Below, piece by piece: positions 10,026-64,000 of a stretch of DNA of 64,000 nt (the first letter of the stretch is position 1; every line of letters begins with the position of its first letter). The stretch is from Candidatus Chazhemtobacterium aquaticus. GTDB taxonomy: Bacteria; Patescibacteriota; Microgenomatia; UBA1400; Chazhemtobacteraceae. The stretch is taken from positions 60,181 through 124,180 of the forward strand of contig NZ_CP047901.1 in assembly GCF_009936135.1 (NCBI RefSeq). Reading direction: 5' to 3'. Position numbers and translations under genes: made by a program. Under the pieces are notes generated by a model. It made no database searches, was not told where the DNA came from, and worked only from the letters and a program-made list of their open reading frames with translations.

Positions 10026-11087
10026 ATGAAGCTAACCAATTTTGACTACCATCTTCCTCCTTCTCTTATTGCTCACCATCCAAACAATCCTCGTGATCGA
10101 AGTCGACTCCTCTTCCTCAATAAAACTACCGGGCAAACAAGACACTACCACTTTTCGGATCTTACCAAACTTCTCACTCCCAATGACGTGCTAGTCCTCA
10201 ACCAAACCAAAGTCTTTCCTGCCCGACTCCACCTCCACAAATCAACTGGGGGTAAAGTCGAGATTCTGCTCACCAAACGCCTATCACCAAACTCTTTTGA
10301 AGCCATATCCAAACCAGGTCTTAAACCTAACCAACCACTCTTCCACAACCACAAACACATCGCTACCACCACTCCCAACTCTAATCCAGAACTACCCATC
10401 ATTAACTTTACAATCTCCGCCTCAAAACTTGATCAATTCATTAACTCAACTGGTGCCACTCCCATTCCTCCATATATTCACCCTCATTCGACCGAAAATA
10501 AACTCAGGCACTATTATCAAACTGTATTTGCCAAAGAATCTGGCTCGGTCGCAGCCCCAACCGCAGGACTCCACTTCACCTCTAGATTACTAAAAAACTT
10601 ATCCAATCACGGCGTTAACATCCAATACCTTACCCTTCATGTTGGTCTAGGTACCTTTAAACCAGTTACCTCAAAACAACTCTCAACCAACACTCTTCAC
10701 CCGGAAAGCTATAACCTCAACTCTGCCACAGCTCACAATCTTAACCAAGCAAAACAATCAGGTAAAAGAATTATCGCCGTTGGTACAACCACCACCCGCG
10801 TCCTTGAAAGTTGTCTTGATCAAAATAATCACCTCACACCCAGTAATGGTCAAACCCAACTCTTTATCAAACCGTCCTACCATTTTCGCTTTATTGACGG
10901 CCTAATTACCAACTTCCATTTACCCCAAAGCAGCCTCCTTATGCTCACCTCCGCCTTCATCTCTCATCCCAATACCCCCCACCACTTCAGCTCTTTTTCC
11001 AAATCACACCTCGGCCAAGCCTACCAAGCCGCCATCGAACAACGTTACCGCTTCTACTCCTTCGGAGACGCCATGATCATCATCTAA
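10026..11087 (+). CDS. queA: S-adenosylmethionine:tRNA ribosyltransferase-isomerase
   Basis: N-terminus MKLTNFDYHLPPSLIAHHPNNPRDRSRLL...LVLNQTKVFPARL matches the QueA hallmark. Confidence 0.9.
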   Translation: MKLTNFDYHLPPSLIAHHPNNPRDRSRLLFLNKTTGQTRHYHFSDLTKLLTPNDVLVLNQTKVFPARLHLHKSTGGKVEILLTKRLSPNSFEAISKPGLKPNQPLFHNHKHIATTTPNSNPELPIINFTISASKLDQFINSTGATPIPPYIHPHSTENKLRHYYQTVFAKESGSVAAPTAGLHFTSRLLKNLSNHGVNIQYLTLHVGLGTFKPVTSKQLSTNTLHPESYNLNSATAHNLNQAKQSGKRIIAVGTTTTRVLESCLDQNNHLTPSNGQTQLFIKPSYHFRFIDGLITNFHLPQSSLLMLTSAFISHPNTPHHFSSFSKSHLGQAYQAAIEQRYRFYSFGDAMIII

Positions 11088-12790
11088 ATCCTCATTTCTT
11101 TAAGCTCTCTTAGACTCGTAATCTGATCAACACTTTTATCGTCTCTCAGTTTTACTAGCCGTGGAAATCGCAACGCCAATCCAGCCGTGTGGGTCGGACT
11201 CTCTGTTACCTCATCTGCCGCCAGCTCCACCACCAACTCTGGTTCCACATACACATCAGGCTCTAAAGCCTTATCAATAACATACTCACTTGGTCGCTCT
11301 CTAACCACCAAACGATCAAGCCTATTCTTTAATTCCCTAAATAACTCATCCGTTAATCCTGTTCCTACCTTTGTCACGGTCACATAACCACTTCCACCCT
11401 TAATCCCAACCAAAAAAGCCCCAATCCCAAACTGAGCCCGCTTACCCCTACCTCGATAGTACCCCATCACCACACAATCAACCGTATCTGACAGCTTCGC
11501 GTGCGACTCCTCAACCTCCTTCATCTTCACCCACCTCCATCCGGTCCTCCCTGGAACATACTCACTTCCTAGCTTTTTTACAATCACCCCTTCTAAACCC
11601 TCGCCAAGTAACCGCTCATGCATTTGGCGAATCTTTTTCGGATCATCTGTCTCCCAATAATCGTCAACCACTAATAAATCCTTATCCTTAATCACATCTT
11701 TTAAGATCGCTCTTCTTTCCTCATAAGTTTTATCGATTAAACTCTTTCCATCCAAATACATTACGTCAAACACAAAAAACTTTAACGGCACCTTTCCTGC
11801 CTGATTTGCTACTCCATGTTTTCTCTTTCGCGTAATTGTCATCTGAAACGACATCATCTTCCCTGTTTTAGGATCTATTCCGACAGCCTCACTATCCAAC
11901 ACCAACTCATCTGCCTTTACGTGTAGAACCATCTCTTTTAACTCGGGAAACATCTTGGAAGTTTCTTCCAAATTTCTTGTAAACGTTCTCACCTCCCAAT
12001 CTTTACCACCCCTCCTGAAATGAATCTGCACTCTTGTTCCATCAAATTTTGGCTCAACCGCAACCCTCCCCATTTTTTTTATCATTGCCTTACTTGACTT
12101 CAACCTCTGACACAACATCGGTGAAATCGGAACCCCCAGCTCCATCTCAATCTTATTTGCCACTTCATCAATTCCCTTCTCCTTAACCGACTTTACCAAC
12201 CACCCAATATCCGGACGCATCTGGTACACTCTTTCCAATTTTGACTTAGCGGACTTATCTCCCCTATATGCCCAACTAACCGCATCCAACAAAGTTTTAT
12301 CTGAAAAACCTAAGCGCAGCTTACCCAACACTATTCTGACTACATATTTTGCTGACAATCCATCCAGGTCACCCAAAAGTGAAGCCAGACCAACCAACTT
12401 TCTCTCTTGTGAACCCGCTCCACTCTCTTTAGCAATTCTTTCCAAAATCTTATGTACCTCAACCACTGTTAATCTACTTGGTCCGCTTTTTAACAAACCC
12501 TCAACCACCTCACCCAAGTCTCCTTCTTTCTTATACACGCTGACAACCTCCCCCAAATCTTTCTCGGTCACCCTCGCTACTGCTTTCTGAACCTGCTTCT
12601 CTGCCAAACCAAATTCCAAACTATCATATAATGGCCTTAATCTCCCTAATATCAAATATGCCACCACATCAGCCTCATTCACCTCTACCTCTCTCACCAA
12701 CTCAGCCAACAACTCAGTCATTCGATTCCTCGAACTCACCCGCTCCAACTCACTCAACTTTTGTCCCAACCTTTCAAACTTCATCATCAC
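11084..12790 (-). CDS. ATP-dependent DNA ligase
   Basis: Adenylation motif I KFDGTRVQIH. Motif III VLDSEAV. Motif IV EGVIVKKL. Motif V WVKMK. Confidence 0.9.
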   Translation of the reverse strand: MMMKFERLGQKLSELERVSSRNRMTELLAELVREVEVNEADVVAYLILGRLRPLYDSLEFGLAEKQVQKAVARVTEKDLGEVVSVYKKEGDLGEVVEGLLKSGPSRLTVVEVHKILERIAKESGAGSQERKLVGLASLLGDLDGLSAKYVVRIVLGKLRLGFSDKTLLDAVSWAYRGDKSAKSKLERVYQMRPDIGWLVKSVKEKGIDEVANKIEMELGVPISPMLCQRLKSSKAMIKKMGRVAVEPKFDGTRVQIHFRRGGKDWEVRTFTRNLEETSKMFPELKEMVLHVKADELVLDSEAVGIDPKTGKMMSFQMTITRKRKHGVANQAGKVPLKFFVFDVMYLDGKSLIDKTYEERRAILKDVIKDKDLLVVDDYWETDDPKKIRQMHERLLGEGLEGVIVKKLGSEYVPGRTGWRWVKMKEVEESHAKLSDTVDCVVMGYYRGRGKRAQFGIGAFLVGIKGGSGYVTVTKVGTGLTDELFRELKNRLDRLVVRERPSEYVIDKALEPDVYVEPELVVELAADEVTESPTHTAGLALRFPRLVKLRDDKSVDQITSLRELKEMRI

Positions 12791-28542: not shown

Positions 28543-28592
28543 GGCAACATTCTAACCTGTTTCACAACAACTGTGAACCAACTCAAATTATG

Positions 28593-28666
28593 TAGCAGGG
28601 GCGAGGATCGAACTCGCGACCTTGGGTTTATGAATCCCATGCTCTAACCAACTGAGCTACCCTGCC
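28593..28666 (-). tRNA. tRNA with CAT anticodon (Met; could be initiator or lysidine-modified Ile2)
   Basis: Reverse complement folds as GGCAGGG-TA-GCTC-AGTTGGTTA-GAGC-A-TGGGA-TTCATAA-ACCCA-AGGTC-GCGAG-TTCGATC-CTCGC-CCCTGCT-A. 74 nt. CCA not encoded. G1-U72 wobble. One A-A mismatch at the base of the anticodon stem. Confidence 0.8.
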
Positions 28667-28878: not shown

Positions 28879-29134
28879 TGCGGGCGGAAGGTCGGTATCT
28901 TGAGAGGCTCAAATGGGCCCTTTTGTGAGTAATCGCAATCGAAAACCTGGCTATATCGGTGAAACCCACGAAATAAGTGGGCAACCCCGAGGGAAGTCGT
29001 AATTGACCCCGTAGAGACTACACGCCGGGCTCCCCAATAAATAAGGGATGATGATATAGTCCGACACTCCAAGCAATTGGAGATAACCGTGCATAATCTC
29101 TCTTAACCGGGGTTCAACTCCCCGGGCCCGCAAC
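28879..29134 (+). ncRNA. ssrA: probable tmRNA (ssrA); structured RNA with tRNA-like 3' domain
   Basis: 3' end CCGGGG-TTCAACT-CCCCGG-GCCCGCA-A-CCA resembles the tmRNA T-arm, acceptor strand and encoded CCA (E. coli ssrA ends GGGTTCAACTCCC...CCACCA). 5' TGCGGGC at 28879-28885 pairs perfectly with GCCCGCA. Local G+C is higher than the surrounding intergenic DNA. No full tRNA cloverleaf is present. No G3-U70 pair or tag frame could be verified. Confidence 0.4.
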
Positions 29135-29143
29135 CAAAATCAT

Positions 29144-30951: not shown

Positions 30952-33294
30952 CTATAACTGTCCTCGTCTCTCTATCTCATTCTCAACCTCTTCCCTATCC
31001 TTACCGTATTTCAACCTAGACAACTCCTTAATCATCTCAGCCACTCGTCTATCCCCCATTCTTTTCTCCGCCTCAAGGTCCCTCCACACATTCATCGAAA
31101 ACGGTGGTACCGGTGTTCCCTCCACGATCGTCTTAACATAAGTAGTCTGAGCCGGGATATTAGTCAAATCAGACTCATTAAACACCGGCGCAAACTCCTG
31201 AGCCATAATGTTGGCATCAGAAACACCCATCCTAAACACCACCATGGTTCCCACATTACCAAAAATTGCATTCCTTACTTCCTCATCAATCTGGCTCACA
31301 AACTGGTTAGCCACCGTCAAAGAAAGGGCGTACTTTCTAGCCTCTGACAAAATCTGAGCAAAATCTGGTGTGGCAAAATTCTGAAACTCGTCCACATAGA
31401 AGAAAAAAGGCTTTCTTTCTTCTCTTGGCATATCTTGTCTTGATAAAGCTGCCGCCAAAATCTTTGGCACCAACACCAATCCCAAAAAGTTGGCATCCTC
31501 TTCACCTAACAATCCTTTTGATAACTTGAGAAACACAATCTTACCCTCATCCATTGCTTTGCGGAAATTCAAAGTAGACTGACTCTGGCCAATAATGTTT
31601 CTGATCATCTTATTGGTAATAAATCGGCCAAACTTACTCACGATATAGTCAAGAGTCTCACTCTTGTGAAACTCACTTGTCTGAGCAATCTGTTCAGTCC
31701 AGTACCTCTTCACAATCGGATCTTTAATTTTAGGCAACAGCTCCTGAACATATTTTTCGTTTTGCAATATCCTAGTTACCTCAATAAAGGTCGCCCCTGG
31801 TACCACGGCCGCAGTTAACATCGCATTTCTGATCGCATGCTCGAATCGAGGACCAACCATCCCCGTCTTATGCGGATCATACAGCTTATACATCAAATTA
31901 ATGATCGAGCTAGCCACAAAATGCATCTCCTCTTCATGATTTACTTCCAGCAAATTAAACCCCATCGGTCTCTCCGTATCTGCAGGATCAAAAACAATAA
32001 CATCCTCGGCTCTCTCCGGCGGCACCAACTCCAACAGCTCGTCAATACCCTCACCATGCGGCTCTAAAAAACAAACTCCATGACCAGCTTTAATATCCTG
32101 CAAAATCATCGATTTTAACAACTCAGTCTTTCCTGTTCCAGTCCTTCCCAGAACATACATATGTCTCATTCGATCTTTCTCGGTAATATGTATTGCCCTC
32201 TCCTGGCCGCGATAAACACTTTTACCTAAATACAAACCTGAAGTTGGAATACCACCAGTCGCCGGAGCCATTCTCGCTGGTAACCACACAATATGTGGCG
32301 TCTCAATCGTTTTATTCGGCAAGTGCCAGAGTGTTGCTAACTCATCGCTCGATAAAATTGAGTTCTGACCAAACATTGATTGATAGCGATAAATAAAATC
32401 AACCATAAACTGACTCTTCCACCCAATCGACTTCCCACTCAAACCATTCATCTCTGAATTAAACTGAGAAAAAGCCCCCTTAACGTTATTTAAGTTAGCC
32501 CTAGCTTGCTCTTGAGTCGGAGCCACACTCACCAGCCTAATTGTTGTTAAGAAACCAGGTTTACCCACCTTAGTATCCACAGCCTGCATATCTTCGGGTG
32601 ACATCTTAAAACTGGCCTTCTCAGGATCAGCCTCCGCTTTTTTCAAACCACTCAAATACTCCTTACCCGCTTTACTCCAATTCGAATCTGCTGGGGAAAT
32701 TAATACCTGAATTGCCGCCGCTTCACCTTCTCCCATCTTTGCCAGTGTTGCTGTTACCAAACTTAAAGGATCAGTCGCCAGCTCTTTATATGTTTTCAAA
32801 GGCATGTAGCTTTTATCCCTTACTACCAACTCAGCAAACTCAACCTTTCCCTCTTCACTAAAAATATTAGGTTCCTCAACCACTTTCACCTCGGCTCCTG
32901 GATACGCTCCCGAGATTTGCTTCTCTACTAATGAGACCAAACTCTCATGACATGACACATAAAACGCTATCGCTTCTTTCTTTGCCACAATTTCAAAACT
33001 CAGGTGCTGCTGAGCCTTAAATCTCTGCCAAAACCCACCTCTCTTGATTGAATACAGCGCTGCAAACATCTGTTCTGCCGCCTCAATTTTCACCTCATTA
33101 TCTCTTGGCACCAAAATCTGCATCACCACAAATCGTAAGCTTACCTCCTCTCGATTCTTATATTTAAACCACTGCATCATTGCCACTCCCAAACCAGCCG
33201 TTACTATCACCACTACCGACAATACTGCCACTATCCCAAAAACCATACTCACCCACTCCGTCATATTTGTTAACAAATCTATACCACTATTCAT
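30952..33294 (-). CDS. VirD4/TraG/TraD-like type IV secretion coupling-protein-type ATPase
   Basis: N-terminal TM helices. Walker [11 protein letters not shown]. Walker [12 protein letters not shown]. 780 aa. Architecture matches the T4CP / TrwB family. Confidence 0.55.
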
Positions 33295-55618: not shown

Positions 55619-56119
55619 CTACTTAAAAGTACCTTTAAGTACTTCTTTCTCGGGAGACTTGTCATCCCTTACCTCCAATGTAATCACAACTAAATCATAT
55701 TCCACAAGCCCTTCATCGCCCACAAACTCAAGTAACCAACCACCTTTCTCTTTTATTAGCTTTCCCACATTCACTCTCCTCTCTCCGCCTATCAACCACC
55801 CTTCATAGAACTCGCCGTTACCCAACTCCGGCAAATCAGCCATCACTGAATGATACAACCGCCCACCCGTTACCTCTCGAGTTGCAACTCCAAAACCTGA
55901 CTCCCCCTCCACTGGCCTCAACTCCACTCGTTCAGCCGTATCAGACACCGCACCCATTCCTCTAAATCTCTCAAGCACCTCCTCACTAATCTCCAAGTTG
56001 TCCCCCACCTCAATTACATCTTCTGGCTCAACTCGATTTGTCATCCAATACCAACCCCCAACTGCCACCAAACCCAAAAAAACCAAACCCCAAACCAACC
56101 CATATCTTTTCATACCCAT
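55619..56119 (-). CDS. membrane-anchored hypothetical protein
   Basis: N-terminal TM, then a soluble domain. No motif. Confidence 0.3.
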   Translation of the reverse strand: MGMKRYGLVWGLVFLGLVAVGGWYWMTNRVEPEDVIEVGDNLEISEEVLERFRGMGAVSDTAERVELRPVEGESGFGVATREVTGGRLYHSVMADLPELGNGEFYEGWLIGGERRVNVGKLIKEKGGWLLEFVGDEGLVEYDLVVITLEVRDDKSPEKEVLKGTFK

Positions 56120-56127
56120 ATTCTATC

Positions 56128-56751
56128 CTATTCTGCCAACTCTGCTTCCACCGCTCGCAGTAAATCTCCAACTGCAGTCTGCTTACCGTTAACAAAAAAT
56201 GTCGGTGTCCCTCTCACTCCCAATCTCATAGCTTCCCCGTAATCATTCATCACTAGCTCCTTATGCCTTCCCTCTTCAAGTGACTCAACAAACATCTCCC
56301 GATCCAAGCCCAATTCTTCAGCATAATCAGATAGCTTAACCTCAATCTCTTTTTCTTCCGCCCATTCTCCTTGCCGTTCAAACAACAAGTCATGATACTC
56401 CCAAAACTTGCCTTGATCGTGTGCCGCTTCCGCTGCCTCAGCTGCAATCAAAGCATTCTTGTGAATACTTGACAGTGGCATATGTCTAAACACAAATCTC
56501 ACTCCCTCTCTATTCTGTACTTGTTTCACTAATCCCTGTGCCGCCTTACAAGCAGGACACTGAAAATCACTAAACTCCACCACCTCTACCTTAGCATCCT
56601 CCGCTCCCATTACCAACCTCTCCTCACCCGAAATCTCTTTGACCTCTCCACCCATCTGATCTCCAGTCATCCTACTCATCCCCAAGGCTACTACAATCAA
56701 CAGCAACAAACTTCCTCCTATCACTCCAAAAATCAACTTAGCATCGTTCAT
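56128..56751 (-). CDS. thioredoxin-fold DsbA-family thiol:disulfide oxidoreductase, membrane-anchored
   Basis: CxxC active site in EFSDFQCPACKAA. N-terminal TM helix. Confidence 0.8.
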   Translation of the reverse strand: MNDAKLIFGVIGGSLLLLIVVALGMSRMTGDQMGGEVKEISGEERLVMGAEDAKVEVVEFSDFQCPACKAAQGLVKQVQNREGVRFVFRHMPLSSIHKNALIAAEAAEAAHDQGKFWEYHDLLFERQGEWAEEKEIEVKLSDYAEELGLDREMFVESLEEGRHKELVMNDYGEAMRLGVRGTPTFFVNGKQTAVGDLLRAVEAELAE

Positions 56752-56791
56752 AAGTCCCTATCTTGCACTAAACTAATCCAAGATTCAAGTC

Positions 56792-57052
56792 TTACTTCGG
56801 CCAAATCTTCTCTCCTGTCTCAATATTGATTACCTCAATCGCCATCGTCGGACAAGACTGAGCTGCCAGCAACTTCTCCTCATCTACATTGCCATCCTGG
56901 TCAATAATATCCGCAATATTCTGCTCGTTTAGCTTAAAAGTAGCCGACGCGATTGCCTCACATGACGCTGCTCCAATACACTTATCATTAATTACCTTTA
57001 CCTGATACTTAGTCTTAACCGGCTTATCTTCTGATCCTTTTGAATAACTCAT
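56792..57052 (-). CDS. small ferredoxin, probably [3Fe-4S] type
   Basis: CIGAASC ... SCP pattern. This is CxxAxxC...CP, with the second Cys of a 4Fe ferredoxin replaced by Ala. Confidence 0.7.
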   Translation of the reverse strand: MSYSKGSEDKPVKTKYQVKVINDKCIGAASCEAIASATFKLNEQNIADIIDQDGNVDEEKLLAAQSCPTMAIEVINIETGEKIWPK

Positions 57053-57128
57053 TCTATTTATAAAACTTAAATTGTAACGCTACCCCATATCCTAATAAAA
57101 CTTAAGCGAGTCCACAATCCCCTTGTTC

Positions 57129-57851
57129 CTAAAAAAACTTCTCAAAATTAACCTCACTCTCACCCACTCCCAACGACATCAACAATTTACTAGTCTCCTC
57201 AACCATCTCTCTGCTTCCACATACATAAGCCTGCCAACTCTTTAGATCTCCACCATGATTCTTCAAGCAATCACCCACATGCCCATTACATCCTTTCCAA
57301 TTATCACCCCCCCTGCTTAAAACCACATCGATCTTAAAGTTTTCATACTCTTTTTCCAAATCCATCCATTCTTTCATCCAAAATAAATCCTCCTCATGCC
57401 TCATCCCCCAATATAGTCTCACTGGCCGAACCTCTCTCTTAATTTTTAACAAATCATTAATCATTGGCCGAAGTGGTACCACCCCACTGCCTGTTCCCAC
57501 CATCAAAAAACCCTTTGTGTCTTGCCTTAAATGCCCATCACTAACCACAAACTCACCCATTGGTCCCAGCACCTCAACCTCATCACCCACCTCCAAATCC
57601 AACACATAACGACTCCCCACACCCATCGGGGCCGTATCAACTACCAACTGTAACTCCTCTTCACCCGGATAACTTGCCAAGCTATAACTCCTTCTTTCCC
57701 CTTCTTCATTTACTTTAATGCTTACATACTGACCCGCCCTATACTCCAACCCTCCTCTTTCCAACCACAAAGACCAATAACTATTGGGCCACTTCTCTTT
57801 CCGTTTTACTCTCACTCGAACCTGTTTCATCTCCTTTGTATTTTCCATCAC
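57129..57851 (-). CDS. ferredoxin-NADP reductase-type FAD/NAD(P)-binding oxidoreductase
   Basis: FAD motif RSYSLAS and NAD(P) motif GTGSGVVPLRPMI. Confidence 0.8.
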   Translation of the reverse strand: MMENTKEMKQVRVRVKRKEKWPNSYWSLWLERGGLEYRAGQYVSIKVNEEGERRSYSLASYPGEEELQLVVDTAPMGVGSRYVLDLEVGDEVEVLGPMGEFVVSDGHLRQDTKGFLMVGTGSGVVPLRPMINDLLKIKREVRPVRLYWGMRHEEDLFWMKEWMDLEKEYENFKIDVVLSRGGDNWKGCNGHVGDCLKNHGGDLKSWQAYVCGSREMVEETSKLLMSLGVGESEVNFEKFF

Positions 57852-57853
57852 TT

Positions 57854-58381
57854 CTAACGCATACTATTCAAAATACTCATAAAAGTCTGCTCATATCCAT
57901 TCTGTGGCTTTAGGTCAAACTTTGTAAAAAACATCTGTACAATCAACAACCTATCCCCCTTAATCGTATATGCAAAATTACCTACTCTTTCCCATTTTAA
58001 ACTCTCCGTCGTTACCGCCCCCCTCATCTCCTTACCTATTACATCTCCTCCAAAAAACTGCTCAAATGAATATTTGCTCGCATCATAACAAAAAAGGGAA
58101 AACAAAGACCTTTTTTCCACTACCCCACCCACCATCTCGTCAAAAACCACCTGAGCCAAAGGCTCCTGCGACAATGACAGCTTAATATCCGACCTCACCC
58201 AATTCTTCGGATACTCAAACTCCACTCCACACTCACTACTCACATATCGATTAGACCCCAAGCCGCCACCCACACCTTTACTCCTCGCCACAATCACCAC
58301 CGCCAACCCCACCATTGCCACCAACGCCACCACCAAACCGGCGTAAGCCATCACCTTTGAACTACCTTTCATGACTACCAC
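57854..58381 (-). CDS. membrane-anchored/secreted hypothetical protein
   Basis: ORF with a GTG start and an N-terminal hydrophobic segment. Confidence 0.3.
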   Translation of the reverse strand: MVVMKGSSKVMAYAGLVVALVAMVGLAVVIVARSKGVGGGLGSNRYVSSECGVEFEYPKNWVRSDIKLSLSQEPLAQVVFDEMVGGVVEKRSLFSLFCYDASKYSFEQFFGGDVIGKEMRGAVTTESLKWERVGNFAYTIKGDRLLIVQMFFTKFDLKPQNGYEQTFMSILNSMR

Positions 58382-58397
58382 TCTATCATACTAACTC

Positions 58398-58406
58398 TGT
58401 TATACT
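58398..58406 (+). promoter_or_regulatory. extended -10 promoter element (TGtTATACT) upstream of the DGR template repeat
   Basis: tgttatact lies 17 nt upstream of the first TR base. No clear -35 element. Confidence 0.3.
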
Positions 58407-58422
58407 CCTACTAGTTTTAGGC

Positions 58423-58557
58423 TTACGCCTTCCTACGGGGAGCCAATTGGAACAACGGATCCAATGCCGGTGTCTTCACCCTCAACCTGAACAATACGCC
58501 CGACAACTCTGGAAACAACAATATTGGCTTTCGTTGCGCCGTCTCCCCCTAAGTAAT
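58423..58557 (+). repeat. DGR template repeat (TR), 135 bp
   Basis: Matches the reverse complement of 60272-60406 at 127 of 135 positions. All 8 mismatches fall on TR adenines. TR carries AAC codons in the target reading frame. Confidence 0.9.
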
Positions 58558-58672
58558 CAAACCTGCGAGATCTCCAGATCATTGATCCACCCATCAATCA
58601 CTGGAGCCGGGCACCATCCAATTACCAGCCTAAGACTCGTCATCCACTTTAAGGAGACAGAGATAGTAAAAG

Positions 58673-58709
58673 AGTAACCAGTCTCGGGATTAATCAACGG
58701 TTACTCTTT
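58673..58709 (+). promoter_or_regulatory. perfect 9-bp hairpin in the TR-RT spacer (DGR RNA structural element candidate)
   Basis: agagtaacc - 19-nt loop - ggttactct, between the TR 3' end and the RT start codon. Confidence 0.4.
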
Positions 58710-58721
58710 TACACTTCTATC

Positions 58722-59855
58722 ATGTTTGACCGCATCATCTCTTTTAACAACCTGCTTTCCGCCTATTACAAAGCCAGAAGACACAAACGTTTCCAAAAAC
58801 CTCTCCAAATCTTCGAGTTTAATCTCGAAAAAAACCTCATCAACCTCCAAACCAATCTCGCCACCAATCAATACCGCCCCAGAAAATACCACCGCTTCAT
58901 CACCTTTGAACCCAAAAAACGTCAGATCTCAGCCCCTGTTTTTATCGACCGCATCCTCCATCACGCCATCATCACCGTTATTGAACCCATCTTTGAAAAC
59001 GTTTTCATTAACCACTCCTTCGCCTGCCGCAAGGGTAAGGGCACCCACTTTGGTATGCTCCAAGTCTCCCAAGTCTATCACCAGATCCGTCAGCATCACC
59101 CCCGCTTCTACTGCCTTAAATGCGACATCAAAAGCTATTTCGCCAGTATTAATCATCAGATTCTTCTCCGCCTGCTATCAAAACACATCTCCTGCCCCAA
59201 AACCATCAAATTACTCACCACTATCATCACCAGCTACCACGACACACCCGGCTGTGGCATCCCCATCGGCAATCTTACCTCGCAGCTATTCGCCAATATC
59301 TACCTCCACCCTCTCGACCTGTACTTAACCAAAACCCTTAAACTCAAAAACTACTTTCGTTACATGGATGACTTTCTTGTCATCTCTCCCGACAAAGAAT
59401 ATCTCCTTGCCCTCCGTCGTCAAATCAACACCTTTTTAACCACCAATCTCAAACTCACCCTCCACCCCAAGAAAAACAATATCTTTAGGGCTGATCGTGG
59501 CCTGGACTTCCTAGGCTATCTCATCAAACCCCATCAAACCACCATCAGAAAAAAGACCCTCCGCCGTTACAAAAAACGTCACAAAAAACGCCTCAAGAAA
59601 CTAAAAACCTTAAAACACCTCCTAAAAAACCACAACCAGCCCCAGCAACTCTCCCTCTTCGCTCCCCCACAAAATCTAACCGACCCGGATCTATCAAACC
59701 AAATTACCGCTCTCCAACAAAAACTTCGCTCCTCCCGTAATTCCTTCAAAGGCTTCCTCCGTTACTCCACCCACCAACGTCTATCTTCTGGTGGTGTAAC
59801 TATCAACAACATCACCATCCCCAACATCTTCCCCAAGAAACCCAACAAGCCCTAG
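58722..59855 (+). CDS. DGR-type reverse transcriptase
   Basis: RT motifs, including YMDD in FRYMDDFLVIS. DGR-specific IGxxxSQ motif (IPIGNLTSQLFANIYL) in place of the group II intron QG. 377 aa with no maturase or endonuclease domains. TR lies immediately upstream. Confidence 0.9.
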   Translation: MFDRIISFNNLLSAYYKARRHKRFQKPLQIFEFNLEKNLINLQTNLATNQYRPRKYHRFITFEPKKRQISAPVFIDRILHHAIITVIEPIFENVFINHSFACRKGKGTHFGMLQVSQVYHQIRQHHPRFYCLKCDIKSYFASINHQILLRLLSKHISCPKTIKLLTTIITSYHDTPGCGIPIGNLTSQLFANIYLHPLDLYLTKTLKLKNYFRYMDDFLVISPDKEYLLALRRQINTFLTTNLKLTLHPKKNNIFRADRGLDFLGYLIKPHQTTIRKKTLRRYKKRHKKRLKKLKTLKHLLKNHNQPQQLSLFAPPQNLTDPDLSNQITALQQKLRSSRNSFKGFLRYSTHQRLSSGGVTINNITIPNIFPKKPNKP

Positions 59856-60190
59856 AGCCTACTCACCCTCATCCACGCATTTAGCAATCTCCCAATCTCA
59901 TTTATTTTCTCCGCTACTACCCCGTATTTCTTAATCGACAAAAACCCTACATCCTTGGCTACTCTCACATATACCCGAAACAAATCAAGATTTACTGAAA
60001 TCTTCTTCTGTTCCGCTCTCCGATCAGGTTTACTGTTAGCAATAACCGTTAGTCTAATCATTTCCATATTAGTTTTTAGCAAAGCATTTGATAACAAAAA
60101 CCGTTGCGCTTTAGGAAACCTCGCCACCATCCGATGGGTATACAAGTACAGGTCATATATTTTCTGAAAGATTATCAGCTGATCAATCAT
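59852..60190 (-). CDS. avd: Avd-like accessory variability determinant (four-helix-bundle, TIGR02436-like)
   Basis: 112 aa from the internal Met, with GGGGGTGAG SD-like sequence 6 nt upstream. IYDLYLYTHRMVARFPKAQRF...L pattern is typical of Avd / 23S-IVS four-helix-bundle proteins. Directly downstream of the VR-bearing gene. Converges on the RT with a 4-nt overlap. Confidence 0.65.
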   Translation of the reverse strand: MIDQLIIFQKIYDLYLYTHRMVARFPKAQRFLLSNALLKTNMEMIRLTVIANSKPDRRAEQKKISVNLDLFRVYVRVAKDVGFLSIKKYGVVAEKINEIGRLLNAWMRVSRL

Positions 60191-60215
60191 ATTTTTCTCA
60201 CCCCCCCAAACCGAA

Positions 60216-60238
60216 GGCTCCGACTCAAGGTCGGAGCC
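60216..60238 (-). promoter_or_regulatory. perfect 9-bp hairpin (ggctccgac-tcaag-gtcggagcc) downstream of the VR; candidate DGR homing hairpin and/or transcript terminator
   Basis: Located 34 nt after the VR end, between the target stop and the avd start. No U-tract follows on the transcribed strand. Confidence 0.5.
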
Positions 60239-60271
60239 AGATAACAAGATTTTAAAAGATAGCTACGCCAA

Positions 60272-60406
60272 ATTACTTAGGGGGAGACGGCGCAACGAAA
60301 GCCAATATTGCTGCGCCCAGAGTTGCCGGGCGTATTGTTCAGGCTGAGGGTGAAGACACCGGCATTGGAACCGTTGTTCCAATTGGCCCCCCGTAGGAAG
60401 GCGTAA
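60272..60406 (-). repeat. DGR variable repeat (VR), 135 bp, at the 3' end of the target gene
   Basis: See TR. Encodes ...FLRGANWNNGSNAGVFTLSLNNTPGNSGRSNIGFRCAVSP*. Differences from TR give N->S, D->G, N->R and N->S, plus 3 silent changes. Confidence 0.9.
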
Positions 60407-62667
60407 TCAATATTACTCGACCCTCCCTGATAATATCTACCCACCCTCTTATTCAAATCCCAACTACTATCACTCGGTTTCAGTACGTCATAACTTAAAA
60501 CACCATAATCACTCACACTCGACCAATCAACCCAACTTGTACCCCCTCCCACCGGCTTATTAGGCCCCCTCACCACATCATCCGTCCATTCCCATACATT
60601 ACCCGCCAGGTCCCAGATCACCTCGCCATTAGATAAATAATGAGTTCGTCTTTGGGTGGCACCATTGCCACAGGTTGGATCAACATCTTTAGTGACCGTG
60701 CCATAGCAGCCTTGGGAATCGTCAGTCGAAGCTTGAAGCGCCAGAGCCGGGCCGTTATCATTATGACCCGCCACCAAATACTGACTTCCCGGACTATTAC
60801 CACACCCTGTCCCGTTTAAAGCACACCAGTTACTCCCCAACCTCTCCAGATTTCTCGCTATCGTCATCCACTCGTTATTAGTCACCAAATGCCACCCCTG
60901 CGTCTGGCAATAAGTCCTGGCATCTACCCCCGATCCGCCAGCATTCTGAGCAATTCTGGCAATCGGTGCCCCTTGAGGCGTTGACACTACATCTCCTCCC
61001 ATATCCTCTATACATCTACACCCCGACAAAATATTTCCCCACGTATCATAACCAGTGTTGCATGACGCATAAGCACCGCTTGCCGTATCCCCCACCCCGT
61101 CACCATCAGCATCACACTTAGCCTGATACTTCATCACACAAAAATCACTCGTTCCATATAGCGGATCACCTGGTACATGAACAAAACCACTAGGACACGC
61201 CACCTGAGCATTAGCAGGCTCTAAAGACTGTGTTTTACCAAACTTAACCGCCGCACCAATTACATCCACATACACCTCGAACAAAGTACGATCATAAGCA
61301 TAAATCAGCACATCATCCATCTTACCGTTAAAGTAATTAGGCGTCGCCCCTGCTCGACCAACAAACACCGACCCCCCCGTTACCGACCATAAAGACAAAG
61401 CCGGCGATGACACCAGTCGGCCGTCTACATAAAAACTGGCATTGACCCCATCATATGACACCGCCACATTAGTCCACTCTCCCGCCGATATACCAGCCCC
61501 GCTGCTCGTCACCACCGACCCTCCCACTGGCCCGAAGCTCAACTCCCCTCCGCTCGTCATCTGGAAGGTATAACCGTTCGTGTGAGGCTGCGACACAATC
61601 GCATAATTACCCAAGGAAGACACATAAACCCAAGCCGAGATCGTCATCGCCCCGCCTAACTGAAACCGTCCGTGATTACCCAGATCAACATAGTCATCAC
61701 TTCCGTCAAAAAGTAAGGCATAATTGTCATTACCCGCTACCCACTGGCTGTTATCACTCGGGAAATTCACCAATGCCGCTCTGGTATAGTTTTCCAGCCT
61801 GTTCATCGTCTGCAAACCAGAACCATCATCAAAACCTAATCTCACTACCGGCCTGCCTCTTTCCATCGCATAAGCCAACGACCCTTCATCTCTCGTCCCT
61901 GAGAATACTCTTACTTCATCAATCGAACCGTCCAGATAACCAGTATAACTGCCAGCCCCCGTTTTTGTTACACCTAAATAAAAATCAGCCGCCGTATCAC
62001 TCAGTGCCGTCCCCACCGACGAAACACTCCCTTCTCTAACCCCATTCACATACAAATATATGGTACCCGGACTGGTTGCGTTATAGTAACCCTGCAACAA
62101 GTACCAAACATTGGGCAGTATCTGCGTCGTTCCTGTTGCTGTCTTAATCGCCGCCGCTGTCCCGTCAGGCGACACCTGGAACTTGGGCCATACCCTGCCG
62201 TCTGCATCAGCCTGAATTATCAACCGATAACTCCTTATATCAAGCGTCTCATCCCACTTGGCCACCACCGTCTGAAACGCACTCTCAGATGCTGATACCG
62301 TATCAAACTTCACCCACGCCTCTACCGAAAAACTCCCTGTCTGGGAAAATACAGCCGTGTCCAGAGCTATCCCGTAATCATCAACACCATCAAACTCAGC
62401 TTTTCTCCCATATTTGGCTTCCGCCCCAATCCCCGTCTTCGTCCCCGTCACCCCACTCCCTGTCGTTGTCAACGTCAAGTCATTAACCCCCACCCGATCC
62501 TTAATCAAAGTCGTTCCATCCCCCTGAACGCTCTCAAAATCGTAATAAACCACCGGCTCGTCCCACACACTCCAATCAGCCCACACTACCCCCGCCCAGC
62601 CCAAAAACCACCAAAAAACCAGCAAACATCCCAACACCTTCCCGATCCTATTTTTCCCACATTCCAT
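60277..62667 (-). CDS. DGR target (variable) protein: signal peptide, two LamG/concanavalin-like domains, C-terminal FGE-sulfatase/C-type-lectin-fold domain carrying the VR
   Basis: N-terminal hydrophobic MECGKNRIGKVLGCLLVFWWFLGWAGVVWA. LamG-like blocks (FSVEAWVKFD..., MTISAWVYVS...). FGE hallmark GNVWEWT, ending in GFRCAVSP with the VR in the last 43 codons. Confidence 0.85.
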   Translation of the reverse strand: MECGKNRIGKVLGCLLVFWWFLGWAGVVWADWSVWDEPVVYYDFESVQGDGTTLIKDRVGVNDLTLTTTGSGVTGTKTGIGAEAKYGRKAEFDGVDDYGIALDTAVFSQTGSFSVEAWVKFDTVSASESAFQTVVAKWDETLDIRSYRLIIQADADGRVWPKFQVSPDGTAAAIKTATGTTQILPNVWYLLQGYYNATSPGTIYLYVNGVREGSVSSVGTALSDTAADFYLGVTKTGAGSYTGYLDGSIDEVRVFSGTRDEGSLAYAMERGRPVVRLGFDDGSGLQTMNRLENYTRAALVNFPSDNSQWVAGNDNYALLFDGSDDYVDLGNHGRFQLGGAMTISAWVYVSSLGNYAIVSQPHTNGYTFQMTSGGELSFGPVGGSVVTSSGAGISAGEWTNVAVSYDGVNASFYVDGRLVSSPALSLWSVTGGSVFVGRAGATPNYFNGKMDDVLIYAYDRTLFEVYVDVIGAAVKFGKTQSLEPANAQVACPSGFVHVPGDPLYGTSDFCVMKYQAKCDADGDGVGDTASGAYASCNTGYDTWGNILSGCRCIEDMGGDVVSTPQGAPIARIAQNAGGSGVDARTYCQTQGWHLVTNNEWMTIARNLERLGSNWCALNGTGCGNSPGSQYLVAGHNDNGPALALQASTDDSQGCYGTVTKDVDPTCGNGATQRRTHYLSNGEVIWDLAGNVWEWTDDVVRGPNKPVGGGTSWVDWSSVSDYGVLSYDVLKPSDSSWDLNKRVGRYYQGGSSNIDYAFLRGANWNNGSNAGVFTLSLNNTPGNSGRSNIGFRCAVSP

Positions 62668-62695
62668 CTCTATTTAAGTATATCACCGCCGACCA

Positions 62696-63046
62696 TCACT
62701 CCACCAACGCCCTAATCGCAGACAAAGGCAACAACACACATTTCATTCTCGCTGGATTTACCTCTCCCATTAACTCAACCACCACCCTCCCATCAAGCTC
62801 TCTCACCTCATCAACCTTCATACCCTTAACCTTATCACTTAACATTGAGGCTGCTGCCGTTGATAATGCACACCCCACCCCTTTAAACCGAATATCTCTG
62901 ATCACTCCTCCATCCACCTTAGCGTAAAACTCAACCATATCTCCACACGTTGCATTACTCTGCTTACTTCTTTTATTAGCCCCTTTAAGATCACCAAAAT
63001 TCCTTGGATTTCTGGCATGATCAATAATTTCTTCTGAGTACTCCAT
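62696..63046 (-). CDS. sufU: SufU/IscU-type Fe-S cluster scaffold (NifU N-terminal domain family)
   Basis: DHARNPRNFG, ATCGDMVEF and GVGCALSTAAASM conserved Cys contexts. Confidence 0.85.
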   Translation of the reverse strand: MEYSEEIIDHARNPRNFGDLKGANKRSKQSNATCGDMVEFYAKVDGGVIRDIRFKGVGCALSTAAASMLSDKVKGMKVDEVRELDGRVVVELMGEVNPARMKCVLLPLSAIRALVE

Positions 63047-64000
63047 TATCTTTTCCGAAATACTTTTTTAACCTCAACCAACTTATCAATCAAGTAATCA
63101 ATCTCAGCCCTAGTGTTATACACATAAACACTCGCCCTTGCTACTGCCATCTCTCCTAGACTCTCAACCACTGGAGCTCCACAATGCTGACCGCTCCTAA
63201 TCGCAATTCCAAAACCATCCAACACCTGCGCCGTATCATGAGCATGTATACCTGGCAAGTTAAAGGTAACCACCCCTGCTCGTTTTTTATAATCCCCCGT
63301 GCCATACACCTCTGCCTTACCCTTTATTTTCTCTAAAGCATAAGCCACCAGATCCTGCTCATGCTTCCATACCTCATTCATTCCCAAATCTTCTAGATAA
63401 TCGACCGCCGCCCCCAGTCCCACCATTCCTGCCATATTAGGAGTCCCCGCCTCAAATTTCCATGGCAACTCGTTCCACTCACTCTTACCAAGCTCAACCT
63501 GTCCAATCATGTCCCCACCATACAAAAACGGTGGCATCTCCTCTAGTATCTCCCGCCTACCCCACAACACCCCTATTCCCGTTGGCCCCAACATTTTATG
63601 TCCAGAAAACACCAACCAATCAACTCCCATTTTCCCAACCTCAGTCTTCATCACTGGCACACTCTGAGAACCGTCTATCAAGATCTTTGCCTTTGTTTTT
63701 GCCCGAACCATCTTAACGATTTTCTCAAGCGGATTTACCGTTCCTAGCACATTTGATACCGCTGTTATCGCCACCAGTTTCGTTTTCCCTCCCAAAGTCT
63801 GCTCTAAACTCATTACTCTCACTCCTTGAAACTCCCTCTTCTCTCCTCCTCTCATCCTTATCTCACCCCCCTCATCTACATCCACCACCCGCAATACTGC
63901 TCCCTTTTTCTGGCACAACATCTGCCAAGTTACTAAGTTAGAATGATGTTCCATCAAAGACACCACCACCTCATCTCCTTTACCAATATTTTTCTCCCCC
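63046..64000 (-). CDS. sufS: cysteine desulfurase (SufS/NifS class V aminotransferase), N-terminus outside the window
   Basis: The reading frame stays open to the window edge (…GEKNIGKGDEVVVSLMEHHSNLVTWQ…). PLP-Lys context FSGHKMLGPTGIG and active-site Cys loop RSGQHCGAP. Stop overlaps the sufU start. Confidence 0.85.
   Translation of the reverse strand, partial: GEKNIGKGDEVVVSLMEHHSNLVTWQMLCQKKGAVLRVVDVDEGGEIRMRGGEKREFQGVRVMSLEQTLGGKTKLVAITAVSNVLGTVNPLEKIVKMVRAKTKAKILIDGSQSVPVMKTEVGKMGVDWLVFSGHKMLGPTGIGVLWGRREILEEMPPFLYGGDMIGQVELGKSEWNELPWKFEAGTPNMAGMVGLGAAVDYLEDLGMNEVWKHEQDLVAYALEKIKGKAEVYGTGDYKKRAGVVTFNLPGIHAHDTAQVLDGFGIAIRSGQHCGAPVVESLGEMAVARASVYVYNTRAEIDYLIDKLVEVKKVFRKR

Follow-up and report, generated by a model that had tools for sequence, protein, structure and literature searches.

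Results

We analysed a 64,000-nucleotide stretch of the genome of Candidatus Chazhemtobacterium aquaticus (assembly GCF_009936135.1, contig NZ_CP047901.1, positions 60,181 to 124,180; hereafter the window, numbered from its first base). Towards its end lies a set of genes and repeats that we interpret, with high confidence, as a diversity-generating retroelement (DGR): a template repeat (TR), a reverse transcriptase (RT) gene, a gene for the accessory variability determinant (Avd) and a target gene that ends in a variable repeat (VR).

58423–58557, plus strand: TR, 135 nt, non-coding and intergenic, 164 nt upstream of the RT open reading frame (ORF); defined by repeat comparison
58722–59855, plus strand: DGR reverse transcriptase, 377 amino acids; Pfam RVT_1, 85.9 bits
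59852–60190, minus strand: avd, 112 amino acids from the ATG at 60190; matches NF033474 and PF22296
60277–62667, minus strand: target (variable protein) gene, 796 amino acids; Pfam assigns two Laminin_G_3 domains and a C-terminal domain of the formylglycine-generating enzyme (FGE)-sulfatase/C-type-lectin kind
60272–60406, minus strand: VR, made up of the last 43 sense codons of the target gene, its stop codon and the pentanucleotide GTAAT; defined by repeat comparison

An inverted repeat that differs only at adenines

The TR and VR are the arms of an inverted repeat (58423–58557 on the plus strand, 60272–60406 on the minus strand; 135 nt, 94% identity), the sole long repeat that a repeat search finds between 56000 and 64000. 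The 64-kb window holds no third copy. Since the plus arm is intergenic and lies beside the RT gene, and the minus arm is the 3′ end of the target gene, we assign the plus arm as TR and the minus arm as VR.

Base-by-base comparison of the plus arm with the reverse complement of the minus arm gives 127 identities in 135 positions, and all eight mismatches fall on adenines of the plus copy (six A to G, one A to T, one A to C). Counted from zero, they stand at offsets 18, 36, 62, 80, 90, 91, 92 and 95, which are TR positions 58441, 58459, 58485, 58503, 58513–58515 and 58518 and VR positions 60388, 60370, 60344, 60326, 60316–60314 and 60311. The plus copy has 35 adenines in its 135 nt, so that the chance of placing eight mismatches out of eight on A is (35/135)^8, or about 2e-5. 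Read in the frame of the target gene, three codons change silently between TR and VR (GGA to GGG, GGA to GGT and GGA to GGG) and four change the amino acid: AAC to AGC (N to S), GAC to GGC (D to G), AAC to CGC (N to R) and AAC to AGC (N to S). The TR contains seven AAC and four AAT codons in that frame. Each of these points agrees with the first-pass annotation of this DNA, which had proposed a TR/VR pair with 127 of 135 identities, mismatches on TR adenines only, exactly these codon changes and AAC codons in the TR; no mismatch occurs at a C, G or T of the TR. That annotation had also remarked that 27 of the 35 TR adenines are unchanged in the VR, which leaves the VR close to its template. 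We find the same count, and in relatives 14–21 of 32–36 adenines are changed.

A larger ordinary duplication extending past both ends had been named as a finding that would count against a TR/VR pair. The homology ends at both repeat borders: the 60 nt outside each repeat end show no similarity between the arms, and the pair is therefore not part of a larger duplication. Towards the 3′ end the GC-rich GCGCCGTCTCCCCC is present at the VR, and TR and VR are identical up to the end of their homology, of which GTAAT is the last 5 nt.

Proteins of the element

The RT is a relative of the enzyme of Bordetella phage BPP-1. Its closest solved relative is PDB 8ub7 (328-residue chain; E = 2.6e-50, where the best group II intron RT reaches 1.4e-20), which we identified as the BPP-1 bRT by matching the RT alignment against the alignment to BPP-1 Brt. 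Compared directly, the window RT and BPP-1 Brt are 37% identical (E = 2e-58). The motifs IPIGNLTSQ (GIPIGNLTSQLFAN) and FRYMDDF (YMDD) are invariant across the clade of its homologues, and the protein combines the two marks of the DGR clade, YxDD and (I/L/V)GxxxSQ, with a greater nearness to bRT than to other RT classes. All residues that are invariant in the clade are retained in the window, where the RT, avd and target ORFs are intact.

Models of other RT families match below their cutoffs. The NCBIfam group II intron RT model TIGR04416 scores 151 bits (cutoff 300) and Rfam shows no group II intron RNA in the window, so the protein is not assigned to that family. Nor is it assigned to the retron or defence RTs (Drt2-5, retron St85/Ec67), all of which stay under their family cutoffs; the best of these models are Drt3a (81.8 bits, cutoff 200) and retron St85 (62.5 bits, cutoff 235). 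An exact-sequence look-up of the RT in the gene index gave no match.

The RT also carries a C-terminal extension of about 85 residues (residues ~293–377, 59600–59855, plus strand) that is not present in BPP-1 Brt and is conserved in the clade, with S338, S341, G344, L346, G357, P367 and I369 invariant.

Avd occurs in most, but not all, DGRs. The window protein matches NF033474 (DivGenRetAVD) at 89 bits (cutoff 80) and PF22296 (bAvd) at 74.8 bits (cutoff 40), and aligns pairwise with BPP-1 Avd at E = 3e-4; despite the family-model matches, phmmer detects no solved relative. We place its start at ATG 60190, as the family match begins at residue 24 of a longer ORF that opens with TTG, and GGTGAG lies 8 nt before the ATG. 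The gene is convergent with the RT gene and the two 3′ ends overlap by 4 nt.

The target protein begins with a hydrophobic, signal-like segment (judged from sequence only), and its C-terminal domain matches PF03781 at 27.3 (cutoff 23.3). An AlphaFold model of the last 308 residues has a pLDDT of 91.4, and its top solved match is Thermus aquaticus TaqVP (5vf4; E = 1.8e-7), followed by formylglycine-generating enzymes and Mtd. We infer a secreted LamG–LamG–C-type-lectin protein with a role in binding at the cell surface. With a DGR-type RT, an Avd and an FGE/C-type-lectin target ending in the VR, all intact, the DGR reading of the repeat pair has gained support from each of its partners.

Relatives and host

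Homologues were collected in scans of genomes and metagenomes; membership of the clade is a lower bound, and the clade is under-sampled. RT homologues number in the thousands, and the nearest named ones among the matches listed are Levy-, Roizman- and Shapirobacteria. A search of viral contigs found no RT relative above 46% identity. The neighbours of the element in the window are housekeeping genes (NifU, a SufS/cysteine desulfurase-like gene, an FNR-like reductase, FtsH, ribonucleotide reductase and penicillin-binding proteins), and the FtsH is closest to that of Candidatus Collierbacteria. The neighbours and the kinship of FtsH together point to a chromosomal DGR of a Microgenomates bacterium of the candidate phyla radiation (CPR).

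The closest locus, L001, lies on an independent contig from Joint Genome Institute (JGI) data set 3300013137. Its RT is 93% identical in protein and 90% in DNA, and gene order, spacing and repeat ends are the same. Identity between the two loci is 97% in the TR, 81.5% in the VR and 88–93% in the flanking DNA. The first-pass annotation had suggested looking in related genomes for VR alleles that differ only at TR adenines. L001 comes close to this: its VR differs from that of the window at 25 positions, 21 of which are TR adenines, and three of the other four are sites at which the two TRs themselves differ, each VR matching its own TR. Two further assemblies, L003 and L004, have the same RT protein and the same TR with different VRs. 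Adenine bias is general among the relatives, with differences at A and at non-A positions numbering 14/0 (L033), 15/0 (L086), and 17/2 and 19/2 in others.

The independent assemblies L001, L003 and L033 repeat the architecture of the DGR. L002 and L006 do so too, but carry the target on the RT strand, so target orientation is flexible in the clade.

Across the RT clade (about 60% identity) the target stands on either strand relative to TR and RT, and avd is always antisense to the RT gene. The target gene occupies 4578–6911 in L002 and approximately 3900–6238 in L006.

An RNA structure around the TR

For 12 loci of the clade we aligned the RNA that begins 20 nt before the TR and runs to the start codon of the RT gene. 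It supports a common structure in which 93.3% of cells are paired, against 78.6% with shuffled columns (none of 500 shuffles reaches the observed value) and 39–49% when the partners are slid. Compensatory changes occur in 32 of the 44 pairs. In the window itself the RNA folds with z = −4.0 and every helix is intact. The parts of the structure, and a conserved motif upstream of it, are as follows.

58401–58406, plus strand: putative −10-like box TATACT, about 7 nt before the first paired base of the DGR RNA; conserved position
58413–58423, plus strand: 5′ strand of the long-range, TR-bracketing duplex, ending on the first TR base; pairs with 58627–58637
58553–58557, plus strand: GTAAT at the TR 3′ end, putative template strand of a TR:spacer priming duplex; complementary to ATTAC
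58565–58612, plus strand: stem-loop P1 of the spacer, directly 3′ of the TR; two helices, 100% and 98% paired
58621–58625, plus strand: spacer ATTAC, putative primer strand; complementary to GTAAT and near-invariant
58627–58637, plus strand: 3′ strand of the TR-bracketing duplex, which resembles the cPRT Stop of BPP-1; covariation in the 12 loci
58639–58665, plus strand: stem-loop P2 (58639–58658) followed by a purine/A-rich tract, consensus GATAAAGAAAGC; covariation
58666–58712, plus strand: stem-loop P3 of the spacer, 14-bp stem just before the RT start codon; covariation

The TR-bracketing duplex has 11 pairs, is 97% paired and has changed on both sides at 7 of the 11. In 12 of 12 loci the strongest duplex between spacer and upstream sequence falls exactly at the position of 58413–58423:58627–58637. 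P1 has compensatory changes in six of seven pairs. All seven pairs of P2 have them (81% paired), and the A-rich tract that follows is conserved. P3 has them in 12 of 14 pairs and is 93% paired.

This arrangement matches that of the BPP-1 ribonucleoprotein as seen by electron cryo-microscopy (cryo-EM). There, TR and spacer form a template–primer duplex (TR117-129:Sp47-56); two nt further on the spacer pairs with bases that precede the TR ('cPRT Stop'), and a short stem-loop and A-minor adenosines come next. An Avd-binding stem-loop lies just 3′ of the TR. P1 is a candidate for the Avd-binding stem-loop, to judge from its position, which is that described by Handa et al. One nucleotide (C58626) separates ATTAC from the TR-bracketing duplex, and by the same analogy the priming nucleotide would be at or adjoining C58625. 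GTAAT and ATTAC are near-invariant in the 12 loci, so that covariation neither supports nor rejects their pairing.

The sequence (T)A(T/C)ACT is kept at the position of TATACT in the 12 clade loci, and the box is the putative promoter of a transcript through TR, spacer and RT gene. A sigma-70 scan upstream of the TR reported no canonical promoter; TATACT escaped it for want of a −35 match. The DGR spacer RNA is not represented among the Rfam families, which gave matches at chance level only.

We also considered whether the primer strand of the spacer pairs better with the end of the VR than with that of the TR. We rejected the idea, as it gains one extra base pair in the window and none in L003.

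The VR bears the composition of the opposite strand

The plus strand of the window contains 32.8% C and 11.5% G, a skew of about −0.48 that holds in every 2-kb bin whatever the orientation of the genes. A whole-genome G/C disparity has been published for the Microgenomates order UBA1400, to which Collierbacteria belong (Ch65 has C 29.8% and G 15.0%; Kadnikov et al. 2020, PMC7143001), and that of the window is more extreme. L001 shares the disparity; relatives at about 60% RT identity do not.

Such an asymmetry labels the two strands, and the VR carries the wrong label. In 2267 windows of 42 codons taken from the other minus-strand ORFs, the third-position GC skew is +0.745 (sd 0.17; minimum −0.29) with 5.7% C at third positions (C3); in plus-strand genes the skew is −0.70. 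The VR, which is read on the minus strand, has a third-position skew of −0.61, with 58% C3 and 14% G3, whereas the 60 codons just upstream of it have a skew of +0.92. L001 repeats the pattern (VR −0.73, flank +0.56), and the VRs of unskewed relatives range from 0 to −0.26. AAC codons are not the source of the C3 excess, which by hand count is about 61% among codons other than AAY (AAC or AAT). The VR thus carries the composition of the TR strand and has been spared the mutation pressure that acts on its own strand. This provides independent evidence for copying from TR to VR. Sustained overwriting predicts precisely this composition, which speaks against an element that died long ago.

Since the target is encoded on the G-rich strand, presumably the leading strand, its transcription presumably runs in the direction of replication. 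Work with a reconstituted system has recently shown that this orientation favours retrohoming.

A second patch of the target gene (~60590–60775, minus strand; codons ~631–693) has an atypical third-position composition, with a skew of about −0.2 and 26–29% C3. It sits some 60 codons upstream of the VR and has no matching repeat in 56000–64000. It may be what is left of an earlier or longer VR, or may stem from recombination.

The strand bias extends to the proteins of the window. Those encoded on the minus strand contain 41% G/A/D/E/V and 6% P/Q/H, those on the plus strand 22% and 14%. For the RT the G/A/D/E/V content is 12.7%, compared with 16–24% in 35 clade homologues from other genomes.

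Phased repeats after the VR

The sequence downstream of the VR starts with CGTAGCT, continues with three ATCT repeats and ends in a 9-bp GC hairpin.

60239–60260, minus strand: three phased ATCT repeats (ATCT-N6-ATCT-N4-ATCT), between VR and hairpin; found by pattern scan
60216–60238, minus strand: GC-rich hairpin GGCTCCGAC-CTTGA-GTCGGAGCC, positional analogue of the DGR target-site hairpin/cruciform

The pattern ATCT-N6-ATCT-N4-ATCT matches once in the 64 kb, counting both strands, and does not occur after the TR. In each of the eight clade loci whose sequence extends past the VR, the same order of ATCT repeats and hairpin follows it, on either target strand, and never follows the TR. The hairpins of L001, L003, L006, L086 and L087 keep their position and differ in sequence. 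The hairpin after the VR could also serve as terminator of the target transcript.

Where the target changes strand (L002 and L006, compared with the window, L001, L003 and L033), the ATCT repeats flanking the VR move with it.

We extended the comparison to 145 unique TR/VR pairs (87 cellular or metagenomic, 58 viral) among loci L001–L247, taking the 40 nt after each VR. Their autocorrelation peaks at lag 7 (0.39) and lag 8 (0.35), compared with 0.25 in TR flanks and 0.26 in random sequence, with a harmonic at 14, and the best lag is 7 or 8 in 95 of the 145 flanks. The phased units are NCTG(A), AATCTGG, CTTGA or ATCT, in 3–5 copies on the sense strand, with none after the TRs. In most cases a GC hairpin whose loop is of the GCGATAGC type comes next. 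The equivalent stretch of BPP-1 is the 21-bp element of the initiation of mutagenic homing (IMH) site, TCTGtgaccaCCTGatTCTTGag, which precedes the GAAA hairpin. Guo et al. 2011 and Wu et al. 2018 do not mention phasing 3′ of the VR, though it may be described elsewhere.

Tentatively, then, post-VR repeats phased at 7–10 nt may be a widespread and so far undescribed determinant of the DGR target site, a proposal that we regard as possible rather than probable. By analogy with BPP-1, where the 21-bp part of the IMH in the same position sets the direction of copying, the repeats could distinguish the recipient VR from the donor TR. More speculatively, they might act through the priming of the lagging strand or through a factor that forms oligomers, for instance pentameric Avd. 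Retrohoming favours targets whose sense strand is the lagging-strand template, and CTG is the initiation trinucleotide of the Escherichia coli DnaG primase.

Another candidate role, RNA–DNA pairing of the post-VR repeats with the conserved spacer motif GCCAGAT, was set aside. Sharing of reverse-complement 6-mers within a locus (2.0) only slightly exceeds that in permuted loci (1.56), and the shared words are family-wide (CCAGAT) and show no covariation, which leaves only a weak idea.

Discussion

The locus has the same parts as the BPP-1 DGR (mtd-avd-TR-brt), the prototype of such elements: the RT (37% identity), Avd, a TR beside the RT gene, adenine-specific differences, a target with a C-type-lectin fold whose gene ends in the VR, and a GC hairpin after the VR. 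The RNA follows the same plan, in which a duplex of the TR 3′ end with the spacer (putative in the window) is succeeded by one of the spacer with the bases just before the TR, and this by a short stem-loop and adenosines. The two elements also differ. BPP-1 is phage-borne, whereas the window element is cellular. Here the target and avd lie on the strand opposite to TR and RT, in convergent arrangement, so that the Stop duplex takes its 5′ strand from a dedicated leader and not from the end of avd as in BPP-1. BPP-1 has mismatches between IMH and IMH*, whereas the 3′ ends of the window repeats are identical. The putative priming duplex has 5 bp rather than 7+3, and the gap to the Stop duplex is one nt rather than two. 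The target is a 796-residue LamG–LamG–FGE protein instead of a tail fibre, and the RT has some 85 additional C-terminal residues.

Closer parallels are found among cellular elements. CPR bacteria are known to carry cellular DGRs commonly, and those of CPR/Patescibacteria are reportedly also treated by Paul et al. in 2017. The window element shares with them its host group, chromosomal context and FGE-sulfatase/C-type-lectin target, and differs in nothing essential; its lineage adds an extreme strand asymmetry, and its clade shows both target orientations. CPR/Patescibacteria cellular DGRs correspond to 'DGR clade 2' of Roux et al. 2021 (PMC8144416). The locus is thus one more CPR cellular DGR with an FGE/C-type-lectin target, a type already known. 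With Treponema denticola TvpA and Thermus aquaticus TaqVP the target shares an FGE-type C-type-lectin fold whose C-terminal strands are encoded by the VR, although TM-scores are only ~0.4–0.5 and identity is ~16%, and the window protein adds two N-terminal Laminin_G_3 domains.

Very probably, the chromosome of an ultra-small, Collierbacteria-like bacterium (Microgenomates, CPR) carries at this locus a DGR that works as the BPP-1 DGR does. To judge from its sequence, it is complete and apparently working. On the BPP-1 model, a transcript starting just after the TATACT box would comprise the leader strand, the TR, the structured spacer and the RT gene. The spacer would form three stem-loops and take part in two long-range duplexes (GTAAT:ATTAC and 58413–58423:58627–58637). 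RT and Avd would bind this RNA and prime cDNA in cis from the spacer beside ATTAC:GTAAT. The cDNA would copy the TR from its 3′ end, starting at about A58552, with misincorporation opposite adenines, and synthesis would halt at the TR-bracketing duplex, near 58423. A start at the priming duplex and a stop at the bracketing duplex would explain why the borders of TR/VR homology (58423 and GTAAT) are sharp. The cDNA would then replace the VR, and as many as 11 AAY codons, together with a small number of other codons, would be recoded in the predicted ligand-binding face. The bracketing duplex would act as the stop, and the ATCT repeats and the hairpin may contribute to target recognition.

Several observations weigh against this interpretation. 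The GTAAT:ATTAC duplex is only 5 bp long and invariant, and the variants GTAAA (L033 and L007) and GCAAT (L090) weaken it with no compensating change. The TR and VR have identical 3′ ends and so lack an IMH/IMH* difference, from which it follows that donor and recipient would have to be distinguished by flanking sequence; identity up to the end of homology has also been reported for some DGRs (Wu et al. 2018). The hairpin after the VR could equally be a plain terminator. Finally, the eight changed adenines of 35 are fewer than in any relative, and in the AAY codons only 4 of 22 adenines are changed, though all three silent GGA sites are. This low divergence of the VR from the TR could reflect selection (for Asn), consensus assembly, low activity or chance.

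The last of these observations is the foundation of the strongest alternative, which is nevertheless improbable: that the locus is a genuine DGR silenced recently, a fossil that no longer diversifies its target. An unusually small distance between VR and TR (8 of 35 adenines, against 14–21 in relatives) is what this explanation has in its favour. Yet the three ORFs are intact, the RT keeps every clade-invariant residue and the RNA helices of the window are all preserved. Moreover, the TR is more conserved between the window and L001 (97%) than are its flanks (88–93%), and the VR has not drifted to the composition of its own strand, unlike the adjoining 60 codons. The change at three of three silent GGA sites likewise suggests that the last event was fully mutagenic.

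An assembly artefact, in which TR or VR was collapsed or chimerically joined in a metagenome assembly, we regard as very unlikely. The source is evidently an uncultured CPR bacterium, and a consensus assembly could make the VR look nearer to the TR than it is in real molecules; but the independent JGI contig of a relative about 90% identical repeats the gene order, spacing and repeat ends, and more distant relatives have the same layout. Equally unlikely, and effectively refuted, is an ordinary inverted duplication or gene-conversion tract near an unrelated RT (group II intron, retron or defence), since the sub-threshold RT matches to such models, which are all that speaks for it, lie far under the NCBIfam cutoffs with no group II intron RNA found by Rfam in the window, the mismatches fall eight times out of eight on A (p ~2e-5) with A-bias in every relative, an Avd gene is present, and the repeat ends coincide with covarying RNA helices.

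If the locus is, as we believe, a DGR, what does it add? The strand asymmetry makes the window and L001 a natural experiment that yields sequence-only evidence for sustained, one-way copying from TR to VR over evolutionary time. Covariation in the clade supports the Stop duplex and the spacer stem-loops of the cryo-EM structure outside the Bordetella phage. The clade also shows that avd is not required to supply the 5′ strand of that duplex. The phased post-VR repeats in the 145 DGRs give a lead on the least understood step, cDNA integration. The strand-composition imprint and these repeats are the features of the locus most worth following.

Other features of the window

Away from the DGR, a group I intron (RF00028, 79 bits, 28900–29083) lies inside an apparent tRNA gene (28879–29135, plus strand) in which the T-arm, acceptor stem and encoded CCA are visible. 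ARAGORN does not call this intron-containing tRNA on the unspliced sequence, with or without its intron option. When the intron is excised in silico it calls a tRNA, mostly tRNA-Leu (CAA or UAA, depending on the splice points). A tRNA-Met adjoins on the opposite strand (28592–28666). Elsewhere the window encodes a 780-residue protein with TrwB/TraG-like type IV coupling-protein domains (30952–33294, minus strand) and a three-domain ATP-dependent DNA ligase (11084–12790, minus strand), both slightly unusual chromosomal neighbours for a very small genome.

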